Of a DNA stretch of 64,000 nucleotides, positions 5,840 to 38,994 are shown piece by piece. Both the position numbers and the translations under genes were made by a program. Location of the stretch: contig CAZFUL010000002.1 in NCBI GenBank assembly GCA_964522435.1, positions 44,631-108,630 of the forward strand, given 5' to 3'. The notes under the pieces were generated by a model. The model made no database searches. It saw nothing but the letters and a program-made list of their open reading frames with translations, and had not been told where the DNA came from. Source of the DNA: an uncultured Gammaproteobacteria bacterium (lineage in GTDB: Bacteria > Patescibacteriota > Patescibacteriia > Magasanikbacterales > UBA922). Each line of letters begins with the position of its first letter. Positions within the stretch are counted from its first letter, which is position 1.

Positions 5840-8800
5840 ATGAGCGATTTTGTCCATCTTCACGTCCATTCCCATTATTCTCTTTTAAATGGGTTAACTA
5901 AGGTAAAAGACCTGGTAAAAACCGCGAAAAAACGTGGCTTTACGGCTATTGCCTTAACAGACTATGGCGCATTATATGGTGCCATAGAATTTTATCGTGC
6001 CTGTTTAGAAAACGAAATAAAACCAATTATTGGCTTTGAGGCCGCTATTGCGCCACGATTACATACAGATAAAGACCCTGAAAAAGATAAAGAGATCCAT
6101 AGTTTGGTGTTGTTGGCACAAAATTATGACGGGTATAGAAACTTGATGAAGTTAAGTTCCATTGGTCAAGTTGATGGGTTATTTTTAGATACCGCAAGAA
6201 TTGATAAAACACTGTTGAAAGAATATGGCAATAATATTATTGCCTTATCTGGATCTATGGATGGGGAGATTCCTAGTTTATTGCATAAAGGACATTATGA
6301 TAAAGCACTGCAAGTAGCAAAAGAATACAATACTCTATTTGGCCAGGATAATTTTTATTTAGAATTGCAAGATCATCCAGCAAAAGAAGGGCAGTTAGCG
6401 GTAAATACGCAGTTAATGCAATTATCAAAAGAAACGGGTATTCCGGTGGTAGCCACTCGAGATGTGCATTACTTGAATCCAGAACAAGCAGATGCGCAAG
6501 ATATTATGCGTTGTATTAGTGAAGGCTGGAAAGTGCACTATACCGATAGAGAGGATTATCGTCATATTGATCGTTCACTGAATACGGCTGAAGATATTAG
6601 TTCCCGTTTTCGTCATATCCCTGAAGCAATTCAAAATACTCGTCGTATTGCTGACAGAATACAAATTGATATCAAACTCGATGATTGGCATTTTGCGCCG
6701 GTACCATTGGATCCAGGAAAAACCTATGACGAGATGCTTCGCGATAATGCTTTTTTAGCTGCGCCGAGTTTCTATCCGGACATGGGAGAAGAAGTTGTTA
6801 CGCGGTTGAATTATGAATTAGATATTATTAAAACAAAAAAATATTCTCCCTACTTTTTGTGTGTGGCGGACTTTGTGCGGTATGCAAAAGAACAGGGAAT
6901 TGTAGAATCAACCCGTGGGTCAGCGGCAGGATCCCTTGTATCGTATGTATTAGGAGTGACAACGGTTGACCCGCTTCGTTTTAAGTTACCTTTTGAACGC
7001 TTTTTAAATCCATTTCGTCCTTCTGCTCCAGATATTGATACGGACTTTGCTGATGACCGTAGACAAGACATGATTGAGTATGTGACCAAAAAATATGGCG
7101 TTGATAAAGTGGCACAAATTATTACCTTTGGAACCATGCAAGCCCGTGCCGCTGTTCGGGATGTGGGGCGAGCATTGGGATTTTCGTATAACTTTTGTGA
7201 TCAAGTTGCCAAGTTGATTCCTCCTGGAGCACAAGGCTTTCCCATGACGATTGATCGAGCACTCCAAGAAGAGCCTGATTTAAAAAAATTGTATGATACG
7301 AATCCAGATGTGTCTCGTTTATTAACCTTGGCAAAACAAGTAGAAGGTTGTGCCCGCCATACCTCTATTCATGCGGCTGGGGTGGTGATTTCTCCAACAC
7401 CGCTGACCGATTACACACCAATACAGCGCGAAGTTGGGGGTGACAAAATTGTCACCCAATATGAAATGAAATCAGTCGAAGCTGCTGGCGTATTAAAAAA
7501 TGATTTTTTGGGTATCCGAAATTTATCTATTTTAGGAAATGCGGTTAATATTGTGAAGAAAACAACCGGGGATGATGTTGATATTTATCATCTGCCACTC
7601 GACGATCAAAAAGTGTATGCCATGTTAGCACGGGGAGAAACCATGGGGGTGTTTCAAATGGGAGGCTCTGGTATGACGCGCTGGTTAAAAGAACTGAAAC
7701 CCAACCGTATTGAAGATATTATGGCCATGGTTGCGCTGTATCGCCCAGGGCCAATGGAATCTATTCCAGAATATATTCGACGCAAATATAATCCAGCCTT
7801 AGTAGAATATCCTGATCCTCGTTTGGAAAAAATTCTCGAAGCTTCGTATGGGCTGCTCGTCTATCAAGACGATGTTATGTTAACTGCTATTGAATTAGCA
7901 GGCTACGATTGGATGGAGGCAGATAAATTTAGAAAAGCCATGGGAAAAAAGATTCCAGAAGAAATGGCAAAACAAAAAATACAATTTTACCAAGGATGTA
8001 AAACACATGGAAAATTAAAACAAGAAACCATTGATGCACTCTGGAGAGCCATTGAACCATTTGCTGCCTATGGGTTTAATAAAGCACATGCCGCAAGTTA
8101 TGGTATTGTTGCCTATCAAACTGCCTATATGAAAGCGCATTATCCGGTACAGTTTATGACCGCGGTATTGCAAGCAGAATCTGGCGATAATGATAAAGTG
8201 GCTGCGATTGTTGCGGAGTGTCGTCGTATGCATATTGATGTGCGTCCGCCAGATGTGAACGAAAGTTTTAAAAGTTTTGCCATGACCTCTGCACAAGGGG
8301 AGCCTGGTGTTATTCGGTTTGGATTAATGGCGATTAAAAATGTGGGTGAACATATTTGTGAAACTATTTATCGAGAAAGAAAACAAGGCGGCGCGTTTAC
8401 GAGTCTGGAAAACTTTTTAGAACGGATTCAGGATAAAGACATGAACAAACGCTCATTAGAGCATTTAATTAAGTCTGGTGCGCTTGACTGTTTTTCAGAA
8501 GATCGTGGCGTCTTATTATCTAATTTAGAGCACTTGTTATTTTTTAACAAGCAAGTGAAAGAAGCAAGCACGAGTAATCAAGGGTCATTATTTGCGGGTA
8601 CCTCAATGGCATTGGATCATAAGGTGGTGTTAAAACCGGCTGCAACCGCGACCTTAGAAGAAAAATTATTGTGGGAAAAAGAATTTTTAGGGATCTATGT
8701 GTCTTCTCATCCCTGTTTACCCTTTGAAAAACGATTAAAACAGGTTATTACTTTTTTGCAAGATATTGAATCTAGTCCACGGGATAGTTGGGTGGTGGTG

Positions 8801-26378: not shown

Positions 26379-26401
26379 TACCTCTTTTTCAAAAATAAAA
26401 A

Positions 26402-26436
26402 ATCCCTTTACGCGCTTGCGTTGAAGGGATTTTTTA
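26402..26436 (+). terminator. Rho-independent terminator of the suf/ferredoxin operon
   Basis: ATCCCTTTACGCGCTTGCGTTGAAGGGAT followed by TTTTTT. Confidence 0.7.
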
Positions 26437-26516
26437 TTCTCCAGTATTTTTTTGTAAAAAAATGCACTGGGGATGGCACGCAACGGGGTGGGATGTGGTT
26501 GTTGCGTGGTTTCTCC

Positions 26517-27257
26517 TTAGTTGGCGGCGTCAACCCCAGGGTCATCAGCCTCAGCCGCTCGATAATCGGGTGGTGGGTGGCAGACGACGTCCCCTTCTTG
26601 CAAGGGGTAGGGGCCGCCCTCTGCTGCCCCTTCAAACAGGGGCTGATTGAGGCTGTTGTTCCGCAACATCGCGGTGTAGTTGAGGCCGTACACCGCCGCA
26701 TAGCGGCCGAGGGTATCGGGGTCCTCTTCCTTGACGATCCCGTAGAGAAGAGATCCACAGCGCCTTGCGTCTTTGCGCTCGTTGTTGCTGGGTTGCGGCT
26801 TCTCTTCCTCTGGTTCAACGAGCGCTCCGGTCTTTTCATCATAATCTTTGGGGACAAAGTGTCCCAAGACGTCACCCGCTGGGTCGGCGAGCCCGGCGTT
26901 CAGACGCAGGAGCGTGTGTTCGTCTGAATTGTGGTAGATAATAAAACCGGTTGCCACGAAGAGCAAGGATGCTCCGACCTGCCACTTCCAGGGGAGCCGA
27001 GGGAATGTGCCGAGGTACACGATTGCTGCATGTACCGTCACCCCCAGAAAGATGATCCCGCTGAGCATTGGGAAGAAATTCTGGGCGCCAAACACCGCCG
27101 ACCAGGCAGTGCAGAAGATGAGCGTCATCGTTCCCCTGAGGAAGTTCTTCTGGGCTTTGGTAAACGGAGCTGTTTTCTTCAGGGGAGGAGGTTCTTCTTC
27201 GGGAAACTCCTGAGGGGGAGGTTCAGTGGAATCTGCTGGAGTGTATTTTTCTGTCAT
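26517..27257 (-). CDS. Compositionally foreign membrane protein: Pro/Glu-rich N-terminus, three TM helices, C-terminal soluble domain
   Basis: Coding GC about 58-60% against a background of about 40%. Codon bias CTC/CCC/GGG/AGG. Own promoter and a GAAGGAG ribosome-binding site. No family recognised. Confidence 0.55.
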   Translation of the reverse strand: MTEKYTPADSTEPPPQEFPEEEPPPLKKTAPFTKAQKNFLRGTMTLIFCTAWSAVFGAQNFFPMLSGIIFLGVTVHAAIVYLGTFPRLPWKWQVGASLLFVATGFIIYHNSDEHTLLRLNAGLADPAGDVLGHFVPKDYDEKTGALVEPEEEKPQPSNNERKDARRCGSLLYGIVKEEDPDTLGRYAAVYGLNYTAMLRNNSLNQPLFEGAAEGGPYPLQEGDVVCHPPPDYRAAEADDPGVDAAN

Positions 27258-27354
27258 GATGTTTCTCCTTCGGCGCTGAGGGGGGCGCCGAGATCTGTTG
27301 TGTATAGATCATATCCCTCTGTTTACCTCCAGTTAGAGAGAAATACGATGTTCG

Positions 27355-27383
27355 ACCCTAGCGCAGATTGGGGTTTTTGTCAA
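27355..27383 (-). promoter_or_regulatory. sigma70-like promoter for the foreign ORF at 26517-27257, TTGACA-N17-TAGGGT
   Basis: Read on the minus strand. A 5'UTR palindrome TCGGCGC-TGAGGGG-GCGCCGA at 27270-27291 lies between the promoter and the ribosome-binding site. Confidence 0.45.
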
Positions 27384-27405
27384 GCTAGGGGGGATATCCT
27401 AACGA

Positions 27406-27503
27406 TCCCTTTTCAGCATACAAGCACGAAAGCAACTCGCGTAGGGTGCCAGATGCACCCTACGCTGCGACTGCTTTCTTTGCCTGTATGCTGTAGCGGG
27501 ATA
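27406..27503. repeat. 97-nt long-hairpin repeat element, copy B
   Basis: 95% identical to 10611-10707. The inner stem GCGTAGGGTGC-CAGAT-GCACCCTACGC keeps its pairing through compensatory changes. Confidence 0.7.
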
Positions 27504-37436: not shown

Positions 37437-38345
37437 ATGATTTCTTTTCTTCGTATTATCCGATTTGCGTTGCAGGACATGGTGCGTAACCTGAGCTTGT
37501 CCTTCATGACATTGCTGATTCTTATTCTCATGTTATTGTCTATCAATACCCTTATTATTGTGCGGGTATTTACTGACCAGACTATTGAAACCGTGAAACA
37601 GCAAATAGATGTGAGTGTGTATTTTCATCATGAAGCAAAAGATGACAGTATAGAAGAAATGCGCCAATATATTACTGCCTTTCCAGAAGTTACCGATGTA
37701 AGCTATTACAATAAAGAACAAGTGTTAGAACAATTTCGTGAAACACATAAAGATAATCCAGATATTATTGCCTCCTTGTCTGAATTAGCAGATAATCCGC
37801 TTGGCGCCACCATGATTATTAAAACGCGTGATCCAGCAGATTACAAAAAGGTTATTGATGCGTTAAATGTTCCGGAGTATGACGGTATTATTGAAGCAAA
37901 AACCTTTGCAGACACAGAGCAAGCCATTAGCCGAGTGACGCTCATTACCAAACAAGTAGAACAAGCGGTATATGCCTTAACGGCCTTGTTTGCCATTATT
38001 GCCTTCTTTGTTATTTTTAATACTGTACGCGTCGCCATTTATACCCAAAGAACAGAGATTAGTATTAAAAAATTGGTCGGCGCAACAGATTGGTTTGTGC
38101 GTGGTCCGTATATTGTAGAATCAGTTTTATTTACCATCCTGAGTGTTGCGATAACAACTGGGATTATGTTTTTTGTCATTCGCTTTTTAGACCCCTATGT
38201 GAGTGTATTATTGAATAAAGAGGCATTCTTGACAAATTACGTTGAGTCTCATATACTGGTGCTCATAGCGACTCAATGTATCGTGGTTTTCTTCTTAACG
38301 ATTGCCACCAGTGGGTTAGCAATGAGGAAGTACCTTAGAACGTAG
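37437..38345 (+). CDS. ftsX: Cell division permease FtsX
   Basis: 302 aa. N-terminal TM, periplasmic loop, three C-terminal TM helices. Directly follows ftsE. Confidence 0.75.
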   Translation: MISFLRIIRFALQDMVRNLSLSFMTLLILILMLLSINTLIIVRVFTDQTIETVKQQIDVSVYFHHEAKDDSIEEMRQYITAFPEVTDVSYYNKEQVLEQFRETHKDNPDIIASLSELADNPLGATMIIKTRDPADYKKVIDALNVPEYDGIIEAKTFADTEQAISRVTLITKQVEQAVYALTALFAIIAFFVIFNTVRVAIYTQRTEISIKKLVGATDWFVRGPYIVESVLFTILSVAITTGIMFFVIRFLDPYVSVLLNKEAFLTNYVESHILVLIATQCIVVFFLTIATSGLAMRKYLRT

Positions 38346-38398
38346 TTGTCTAAGTTATATAGGATATACCGCCTACGCTAAAGCTACGGCGAACACAG

Positions 38399-38469
38399 TC
38401 GGGGATCGTCTAACGGTAGGACTCTAGGTTTTGGTCCTAGTTATCGGGGTTCGAATCCCTGTCCCCGAG
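38399..38469 (+). tRNA. tRNA-Gln (anticodon UUG)
   Basis: TCGGGGATCGTCTAACGGTAGGACTCTAGGTTTTGGTCCTAG...GGGGTTCGAATCCCTGTCCCCGAG. Anticodon loop TTTTGGT. Confidence 0.7.
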
Positions 38470-38576
38470 CAAAATATAAATACACCCATATGGGTGTATT
38501 TATATTTATGATAGTGAAAGGGATTCGAAGGGCGCGAGAGCCCCGACTAAATGTCGGGGCGGTGCGCAGCGCCCCG

Positions 38577-38593
38577 GTACCCGAACGGAGTGA
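38577..38593 (+). repeat. 17-nt direct repeat of the tRNA-Gln 3' end, AATCCCTGTCCCCGAGC
   Basis: Exact copy of 38453-38469, about 110 nt downstream of the tRNA. The intervening segment is GC-rich and carries hairpins. Confidence 0.6.
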
Positions 38594-38605
38594 GGGGGAA
38601 TCCCT

Positions 38606-38634
38606 GTCCCCGAGCTAAAACAAAAAGCGGCCAA
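38606..38634 (+). terminator. Rho-independent terminator
   Basis: AAAAAGCGGCC-AACA-GGCCGCTTTTTG. Confidence 0.7.
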
Positions 38635-38727
38635 CAGGCCGCTTTTTGTTTATATACATTTGACACATTTTCTCAGCGGGTGTAATATCCCCTATAGGGG
38701 GATATATAATAAATTATTTTTATTTCT

Positions 38728-38994
38728 ATGTATAAACCAAAAAATGAAAAAGAACGAATTACGCATCGACTAAAAATTTCTTTTGGTCATATGAAAAAAA
38801 TTTTAACCATGGTAGAAGATGGTGCCTATTGCGTTGATGTTATTCATCAATCGAAAGCGGTGCAAAAAGCACTCAAAGAAGTCGATCATCTTATTTTAGA
38901 AAATCACCTTAATACTTGTGCTGCAGACGCCATAAGAGATGGAGAAGAAAAAAAAGCGATTGAAGAAATTATGGGCATTATAAGAAAAACGTAA
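38728..38994 (+). CDS. csoR: CsoR/RcnR-family metal-sensing transcriptional repressor
   Basis: 88-aa all-helical protein with Cys/His ligand positions (YCVDVIHQ ... NTCAAD). Precedes a copper ATPase. Confidence 0.7.
   Translation: MYKPKNEKERITHRLKISFGHMKKILTMVEDGAYCVDVIHQSKAVQKALKEVDHLILENHLNTCAADAIRDGEEKKAIEEIMGIIRKT

Follow-up and report, generated by a model that had tools for sequence, protein, structure and literature searches.

A candidate RtT-type module in the 3' trailer of a tRNA-Gln gene from the candidate phyla radiation

Knowledge of RtT repeats dates from about 1980, and in Rfam they constitute an enterobacterial family. The associated rtT RNA figures in processing of the tyrT transcript and probably is tied to the stringent response, though its mode of action is unknown, as too is said of the role of RtT RNA in E. 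coli (bioRxiv 10.1101/2024.07.17.603846). Considered here is a stretch of similar design which follows a tRNA-Gln gene in a 64,000-nucleotide piece of contig CAZFUL010000002.1 (‘the window’), from a bacterium of the candidate phyla radiation (CPR) which its FtsX homologues place in Candidatus Magasanikbacteria (Patescibacteria). The reading that I favor, held with about even confidence, is that positions 38471-38615 of this window represent a small, non-coding RtT-type module located within the 3' trailer of tRNA-Gln, one which would have been gained by insertion or duplication at the T-loop. The module is, moreover, one of a recurrent and patchily spread CPR set.

In E. coli K-12 the 3'-terminal 19 nt of tRNA-Tyr, AATCCTTCCCCCACCACCA, are found three times downstream of tyrV at a spacing of 178 nt, that is, within a region (NC_000913.3, 1286700-1287240, minus strand) for which both rttR, a small RNA, and tpr are annotated. 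The order of parts within an RtT unit is ..GGGGAAGGAU, i.e., the tRNA end in reverse complement, then GAGAAG, then a degenerate 5' half of the T-arm, AAGGUUCGA, then a GC-rich insert of about 65 nt, and lastly AAUCCUUCCCCCACCACCA. The consensus structure of the Rfam family (RF00391) has the same closing helix, GgGaaGG/CCuuCcC. Beside this helix the 5' strand of the RtT units carries GAGAA and their 3' strand carries AGUA, as is also the case for one of the CPR elements considered below (that of locus L018). This pairing of motifs resembles an internal loop of the loop-E or sarcin-ricin type.

The window's tRNA-Gln(UUG) gene is intact (38399..38470, plus strand, as are the other features of this locus; ARAGORN, with Rfam tRNA scoring 57.4 bits), has a U1-A72 pair and a discriminator G, and does not encode CCA. 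An 18-nt sequence, GAATCCCTGTCCCCGAGC, which starts at T-loop position 57 and ends one base past the discriminator, occurs within this gene as copy 1 (38453..38470) and then recurs exactly as copy 2 (38598..38615), starting 128 nt past tRNA-Gln, with 127 bp separating the two copies. Similarity runs on to 38474 and to 38619, respectively, i.e., the repeat is extendable to 22 nt at 95% identity (one mismatch). Even with up to three mismatches allowed, there are just these two copies in the 64 kb, versus 0.01 expected, and no 3'-end copies are seen at the window's other two tRNAs. An earlier reading of this DNA, made from the sequence alone, had reported the repeat as 17 nt in length with its second copy at 38577-38593; the repeat is real and exact, but it is an 18-nt repeat and that placement was about 22 nt off.

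Following the tRNA is T1 (38472..38507; dG -20.3), a perfect 16-bp AT-rich hairpin, as the sequence-only reading had recognized, which leads into a U-rich stretch, resembles a terminator, and acts for the intact copy of the tRNA. Next is the 5' strand of a closing helix, P1, with sequence GAAAGGGATTC (38516..38526), as seen with inverted repeats, in minimum free energy (MFE) folds, and among shared 7-mers. Overlapping this strand is an 11-mer, AGGGATTCGAA (38519-38529), which perfectly matches, in reverse complement, the tRNA's T-loop plus the 3' strand of its T-stem, and the P1 5' strand is predicted to be able to pair either with copy 2 or instead with the real tRNA. The 106 nt from 38510 to 38615 have as their predicted fold a three-way junction, in which P1 pairs 38516-38526 with 38598-38608, copy 2 thereby supplying the helix's 3' strand, and in which P1 encloses two GC-rich hairpin domains (38532-38567 and 38572-38597). 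This element is more stable than are shuffled sequences (z -2.8 to -3.2).

The first of these domains, P2 (38532..38567), consists of an outer stem, GCGCG/TGCGC, and an inner hairpin, GCCCCGAC-TAAAT-GTCGGGGC, at 38540-38560. The arms of the inner hairpin are those of the tRNA-Gln acceptor stem, i.e., GCCCCGAC and GTCGGGG, in reverse and direct orientation. A further hairpin, CGGGGCGGTGC/GCAGCGCCCCG, at 38555-38576, overlaps the inner hairpin and the two therefore are alternatives; both are present, as had been noted earlier. The predicted second GC-rich hairpin domain, P3 (38572..38597), contains CCCGGTACCCGAAC (38573-38586), in which the tRNA 3' end is repeated a third time in degenerate form, identical at 11 of 14 positions. 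Downstream of copy 2 is T2 (38618..38654; dG -24.0), a strong intrinsic terminator whose 15-bp perfect stem spans 38618-38651, with a 4-nt loop and a T run, and the claim that the segment ends in such a terminator thus holds. A 36-codon open reading frame (ORF), ATG..TAA, also passes through the module (38507..38618). It is probably spurious, given that there is no upstream Shine-Dalgarno sequence, no Pfam match, and that GC-rich sequence within an AT-rich genome is stop-poor. Lying outside of the module, and serving as its right-hand limit, is the promoter-like TTGACA-17-TAATAT of csoR-copA (38660..38688).

In terms of composition this segment is indeed unlike its surroundings, as had been proposed, with G+C of 0.56-0.68 over 38500-38619 versus about 0.35-0.40 nearby, and with 66% G+C between T1 and copy 2 in a genome of ~37% G+C. 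Unlikeness in composition is not foreignness, however. Of the 88 interior nucleotides, 26 lie within matches of at least 7 nt to tRNA-Gln, on either strand, versus 4.7 ± 5.4 with shuffled sequences (1/1000 shuffles), and the segment therefore is not foreign DNA but built in part from pieces of tRNA-Gln. A hairpin of this sort has been seen elsewhere, in that at L003 (1575-1670), a related locus, a pseudo-tRNA-Thr 5' fragment which lies upstream of the real tRNA-Thr has two GC hairpins in its D-loop, and one of these, CCCCGAC-GCAAT-GTCGGGG, is a near-twin of the window hairpin at 38540-38560. Hairpins of the CCCCGAC..GTCGGGG type may represent a module repeatedly found in different genomes.

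Set beside RtT (RF00391), the design is the same in five respects. Both lie directly downstream of a tRNA gene on that gene's strand; both terminate with the tRNA's T-loop-to-3'-end portion exactly repeated, over 19 nt in E. coli RtT and over 18 nt in the window; both have a 5' segment that is reverse-complementary to this repeated end and with it forms the closing helix; both hold a GC-rich interior, with further tRNA-derived pieces, within a pseudo T-loop; and a short Arg-rich ORF runs through the unit of each. They differ in their tRNA, which is Gln in the window but Tyr with E. coli RtT, in the phyla of their hosts, and in number, with one unit in the window versus 3.14 in tandem in E. coli. 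A hairpin terminator between tRNA and unit, in addition, is present in the window only. The sequence-only reading had suggested, as one of its options, a structured RNA with a tRNA-like 3' end, and the anatomy does fit the RtT design, but the hairpin interposed between tRNA and module does not sit easily with that suggestion.

Related loci were gathered via FtsX homologues, yielding 50 genome or metagenome loci plus 11 more. As tRNA-Gln follows ftsX in most of these, there are 31 distinct tRNA-Gln loci for comparison, here designated with an L and a number. The 3' end of the local tRNA is found again 80-300 nt downstream at seven of the 31: the window, L002, L024, L009 (with two copies), L018, L019, and L045; L017 has a partial copy, making for seven to eight occupied loci depending on whether it is counted. 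These copies match the acceptor variant of their own locus (CTGTCCCC, CTGCCTCC, CTGTCTCC) exactly or with at most two mismatches, and all start at the same T-loop position, ±2 nt. All of the occupied loci have CCCTG as their T-stem, i.e., 7/19 versus 0/12 for loci with other T-stems (Fisher p 0.026, uncorrected for phylogeny). On the FtsX tree the modules are patchy, being absent from L001 and L005, which are the window's sisters, and from L013, which is the sister of L009; four further loci that were examined had no module. It may be noted separately that the assemblies of L154, L156, and L155 break off no more than about 200 nt past ftsX or tRNA-Gln, which is what assembler confusion over repeats at this locus would lead one to expect.

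The segment is not, that is, a conserved part of the tRNA-Gln downstream region in all relatives, being missing from L001, L005, and others. Nor is the repeat special to tRNA-Gln, as 3'-end copies are found at tRNAs Gly, Thr, Lys, and Asn of related genomes, a generality that stops short of the other two tRNAs of the window. At L009 (573-700, tRNA-Gly) and at L157 (418-590, tRNA-Thr) the extra 3'-end copies carry another lineage's tRNA sequence, and at L037 (4083-4650) a 136-codon NUDIX gene is bracketed by repeats of the 3' part of tRNA-Asn. The copies at these three loci are evidence of DNA from other lineages having inserted at tRNA genes in these CPR bacteria.

Two kinds of module body can be told apart, each of which lies behind the tRNA's hairpin terminator. 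Type A begins with GYGAAGAGAGG, followed by the reverse complement of the tRNA end and then GAUGAGAAG. Type B begins with GAUGGGGAAGC, followed by a hairpin and then CAGGGAUUCGAAG; the window is grouped with type B because of its GAUAGUGAA-AGGGAUUCGAAG. All of the elements are predicted to fold with their 5' part paired to the 3' copy, and most are far more stable than shuffled sequences (z -2.1 to -5.7). The type B elements of L009 and L045 (L009_B and L045_B) are clearly homologous (z 15.6), with L045 having a distant host, i.e., one whose FtsX is 33% identical to that of the window and which is an outgroup on the tree. In the first hairpin, H1, of these window-type relatives, nine of nine pairs are kept, with five of them changed on both sides. 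The window interior itself resembles L009_B modestly (z 3.6, 1/500 shuffles) and L045_B weakly (z 1.7).

The T1 hairpins bear as well on how modules might come and go. Among 465 pairs of tRNA-Gln 3' flanks, the T1 of the window and the T1 of L019 form the top non-trivial pair (score of 31 versus 12.4 ± 4.8), the window and L019 having distant hosts that both bear elements. At L002 and L045 the terminator is included inside of the duplication, which comes to 50-80 nt in all. Together with the absence of the segment from the nearest relatives, its patchiness elsewhere, and the shared T-loop start, the T1 pair upholds another option of the sequence-only reading, that of a miniature insertion. An excised element's scar, also proposed, does not fare so well: site-specific excision leaves one restored site and not a pair of copies, and here two copies remain.

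The module represents a polymorphism of gain and loss at the T-loop of CPR tRNA-Gln genes. The arriving unit most likely would consist of a 3'-end copy, T1, and a body, which upon insertion would restore the tRNA while displacing the original 3' end and terminator downstream. Gain of such a unit at the DNA level is suggested by the T1 pairing of window and L019, the terminator-including duplications at L002 and L045, the foreign tRNA copies at L009 and L157, and the NUDIX gene at L037. The module is not what remains of a gene-carrying island. By analogy with RtT, transcripts which escape the weak, AU-rich T1 might then run on to T2, and the closing helix, in combination with a tRNA-identical 3' end, could allow for tRNA-type 3' maturation, thereby releasing from the tRNA transcript a stable RNA of roughly 105-145 nt. 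Such an RNA might bind factors that recognize the T-arm and acceptor end of tRNA-Gln.

Several results weigh against seeing an RtT-type RNA here. With Rfam RtT no match was obtained within window positions 38300-38760 at E values of up to 10, nor within L009, L045, or L019. A model built from RtT along with three type-A elements gave the window 13.1 bits (E 0.41), which is noise, a chance match to an ORF having scored 12.6 bits, and comparison of the window interior with E. coli RtT gave a z of only 1.7. As there is no RtT match and the model score is at the level of noise, the window element is not placed in RF00391. No promoter-like site was found directly upstream of the module; the terminator-like hairpin that E. 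coli RtT lacks is found between tRNA and module in every CPR example; and T1 may stop most transcripts. The elements L002_A and L024_A are no more stable than shuffled sequences and look neutral, and between L002 and L024, which are near-identical, a 55-nt stretch around copy 2 holds six of the seven differences found over 465 nt. The sample, lastly, is small, with only three window-type sequences and with no close relative of the source genome, for which the nearest other FtsX is 70% identical and found on a contig that stops right after ftsX.

The L002/L024 cluster of differences (L002 3270-3330 versus L024 3610-3675) covers both copy 2 and the terminator, and four of its five substitutions are C/T or G/A. 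It is a hot spot of local mutation or recombination, and some module copies, such as these, are decaying.

For type A the relationship with RtT extends to sequence. The RtT motif GGAUGAGAAG, which is not in the window copy, is present in CPR type A relatives, and the conserved RtT core (GGAUGAGAAcCUUCG..AGGUuCGA..CGAgUaAUCC), likewise not found in the window element, is found in part in L009_A, L019_A, and L018_A. In E. coli as well as in those same three elements GATGAGAA is invariant and in the same position. RtT, furthermore, is the top Rfam match of the L018 element, over the full model, though at 19.6 bits (E 0.1) this is below threshold, the gathering score being 45 bits and E. coli units scoring 134-137 bits. 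Local alignments of type A with RtT have z of 2.0-2.9. The link between window and RtT is architectural only, that is, with the links in sequence being those of type A.

A serious if rather unlikely rival to the RtT-type reading is that the repeat pair is an inert attL/attR footprint. An element or satellite that targets tRNA genes would have recombined within the T-loop and later lost all but about 130 bp, with no RNA made, with the hairpins being leftovers or recombinase-binding DNA, and with the whole resembling the remnant of a cis-mobilizable element (CIME). It remains serious because no promoter-like site precedes the module and because T1, which lies ahead of the body in every CPR example, may stop most transcripts. 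As with the attL/attR duplications of T-loop integrases (the P4-like class), the repeat runs from T-loop to tRNA 3' end, here plus 4 nt, an intact tRNA is located on the left, and there are both occupied and empty relatives; such a block is said, after Reiter 1989 and Williams 2002, to be the classic form for T-loop-class integrases. The patchy distribution, the serial copies of L009, the foreign tRNA sequence in the extra 3' ends at the L009 tRNA-Gly and the L157 tRNA-Thr, the repeat pair that brackets the NUDIX gene of L037, and the decay of copy 2 in L002/L024 all are consistent with a footprint as well.

CIMEs are known from the integrative and conjugative elements (ICEs) of streptococci, where, as in the window, att-type repeats bracket a short segment lacking recombination and transfer genes; typically CIMEs span kilobases and come from identifiable ICEs. 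Tandem accretion is possible with CIMEs and the tRNA-Gln modules alike, as seen at L009, but no parental element is known for the window module. Fragments of tRNAs left by integration have, in addition, been documented, those beside tRNA genes having been attributed to integrated elements or to CRISPR activity (PMC9897764). In both those cases and the window a partial, non-canonical copy adjoins a canonical tRNA gene, but in the window the fragment belongs to a compact, recurrent, and structured module.

Other observations are less readily reconciled with a footprint. No integrase is found in or beside any of the eight tRNA-Gln modules. In the window just 127 bp lie between the repeats and, as the sequence-only reading had stated, these hold neither integrase nor other cargo; the neighbors are ftsE/ftsX on the upstream side and, on the downstream side, genes for a CsoR-type repressor and a CopA ATPase. 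In all lineages the body directly follows T1, and the bodies have a common fold with compensatory changes, which is not expected of independent deletion remnants, and the window's interior is made up of tRNA pieces with a conserved fold, unlike attL/attR duplications. Because the right-hand junction, GAGGGG|GAAT, is missing the TTC of the T-loop, it does not represent a simple B-O-P' product. Viral contigs yielded no attP-like copy: all of their occurrences of the 18-mer are within complete tRNA-Gln genes of phages, the type-B motif has no matches, and a type-A 15-mer has 99 chance matches, none of them beside a tRNA-Gln end. By blastn the window segment has no match among phages and plasmids, and an E. 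coli RtT unit, searched against phages and plasmids, matches only enterobacterial chromosomal tyrT loci. The interior's 66% G+C, lastly, persists within a genome of about 37% G+C.

Quite improbable, though not negligibly so, is a local replication accident without function, i.e., template switching at the terminator hairpin (quasi-palindrome extension) along with slippage, in which case the likeness to RtT would be convergent. This would account for an imperfect palindrome centered on T1, which reaches from the T-loop through to AGGGATTCGAA with 40-nt arms that are 80% complementary, for an interior pieced together from parts of tRNA-Gln in either orientation, for the degenerate third 3'-end copy, and for the duplications at L002 and L045 that take in the terminator and more. 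It would not account for the same end points and fold in distant lineages, the homology of L009_B with L045_B across very distant hosts, the compensatory changes in stems, nor the GATGAGAA that is common to CPR elements and E. coli RtT.

Very unlikely is that the module supplies an RNA which acts by complementarity on tRNA-Gln or its gene, whether as an antisense regulator of folding or maturation or as scaffold plus guide for a distant RNA-guided nuclease or recombinase. The AGGGATTCGAA strand can pair with the T-arm of the real tRNA, as seen from the inverted repeat and in a fold of the whole transcript, and a GC-rich scaffold, 18 nt that are identical to a target, and then a terminator make for a layout similar to that of TnpB/Cas12-type guide RNAs. 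A guide that matches an essential, intact tRNA gene would be self-targeting, however, no nuclease or recombinase gene is nearby, no GIY-YIG gene is present in the 64-kb window, and there is no match to an Rfam guide or omega RNA. A small basic Tpr-like protein encoded by the ORF at 38507-38618 is highly improbable: the E. coli RtT unit bears the annotated tpr ORF, type-A elements have an ATG (MRS..) at their start, behind GAGAGG-like sequences, and the window ORF is Arg-rich, like Tpr, but no ribosome-binding site precedes the window's ATG, the ORFs differ in length and sequence from element to element, nucleotides of H1 covary for the stem while the encoded residues change, and Pfam gives no match.

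Other identities were considered and rejected. Rfam, at gathering thresholds as well as at E values of up to 10, gave only tRNA in the window, so to speak leaving no known RNA family, and as transfer-messenger RNA (tmRNA) or another tRNA-like RNA only the true tRNA is called there by ARAGORN and Rfam. In L009 and L045, GGAUUCGA and CGAGGGGCGG recall the 5' part of tmRNA, but ARAGORN and Rfam find nothing and there is no T-arm. A miniature cloverleaf at 38554-38615, with an acceptor-like fold, lies 15 kcal/mol above the MFE. Small ribozymes, the hammerhead included, are not indicated, with GAUGAG lacking the CU of the CUGAUGA core and with no Rfam matches, and for a retron non-coding RNA, a TnpB or IscB guide RNA, or an IS110 bridge RNA there is no partner gene nearby, while a guide would be self-targeting. 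A miniature inverted-repeat transposable element, or other miniature element derived from an insertion sequence, would have terminal inverted repeats and a short target-site duplication, whereas this insert, with ends AAAATATAAA.. and ..GAGTGAGGGG, has no inverted repeats at its termini and comes with a duplication of 18-22 nt. A possible second element on the minus strand at window positions 8669-8723, i.e., the 14-mer ACAGGGATGAGAAG, lies inside of an 1181-codon ORF and is a chance match.

Elsewhere in the window, positions 26400-27500 have a G+C above that of their surroundings, with two perfect GC-rich hairpins (27270-27291 and 27439-27465) sitting in a non-coding gap between two minus-strand ORFs. 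There are only seven such perfect GC-rich hairpins in the 64 kb, two of which belong to the tRNA-Gln module.

Additional features are seen at tRNA genes of the related loci. In several relatives the tRNA-Asn(GUU) that comes next after tRNA-Gln is split between anticodon positions 35/36 by a group I intron (L018 3898-4175 and L001 4158-4562, and also L026 and L037; Rfam Intron_gpI, 83.7 and 71.4 bits). Small genes for GIY-YIG nucleases (Pfam E about 1e-15) directly adjoin tRNA-Gln, tRNA-Lys, and tRNA-Asn at L035 (3410-3750), L007 (1750-2600), and L005 (3560-4100). By these genes are partial tRNA copies whose loops or arms have been replaced by GC-rich palindromes (TCCGCC..GGCGGA, CCTGCC..GGCAGG), including three tandem 57-nt pseudo-tRNA-Asn units at L005. 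These arrangements look like homing-endonuclease cassettes which duplicate a part of their tRNA target.

For annotation, copy 2 should be read as a tRNA fragment, one which is neither a gene nor proof of a prophage. The tRNA genes of CPR bacteria appear more generally to be busy sites, where fragments, hairpin modules, group I introns, GIY-YIG genes, and small cargo genes gather. More tentatively, and with considerable doubt, RtT-type modules may constitute a cross-phylum class of tRNA trailers, found behind Tyr in E. coli and behind Gln and perhaps other tRNAs in CPR bacteria, that adopt the 3' end of the host tRNA on both strands of their closing helix. If true, then that class would be either a mobile, non-autonomous RNA/DNA element which enters via the universal T-loop or instead a conserved regulatory RNA that is tied to tRNA maturation. 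Modules of RtT design found behind another tRNA, in a distant lineage of tiny genomes, would give a comparative handle on RtT itself, that is, on what is conserved (the closing helix made from the tRNA end, the T-loop insertion, and a short purine-rich motif) versus what is free to vary.

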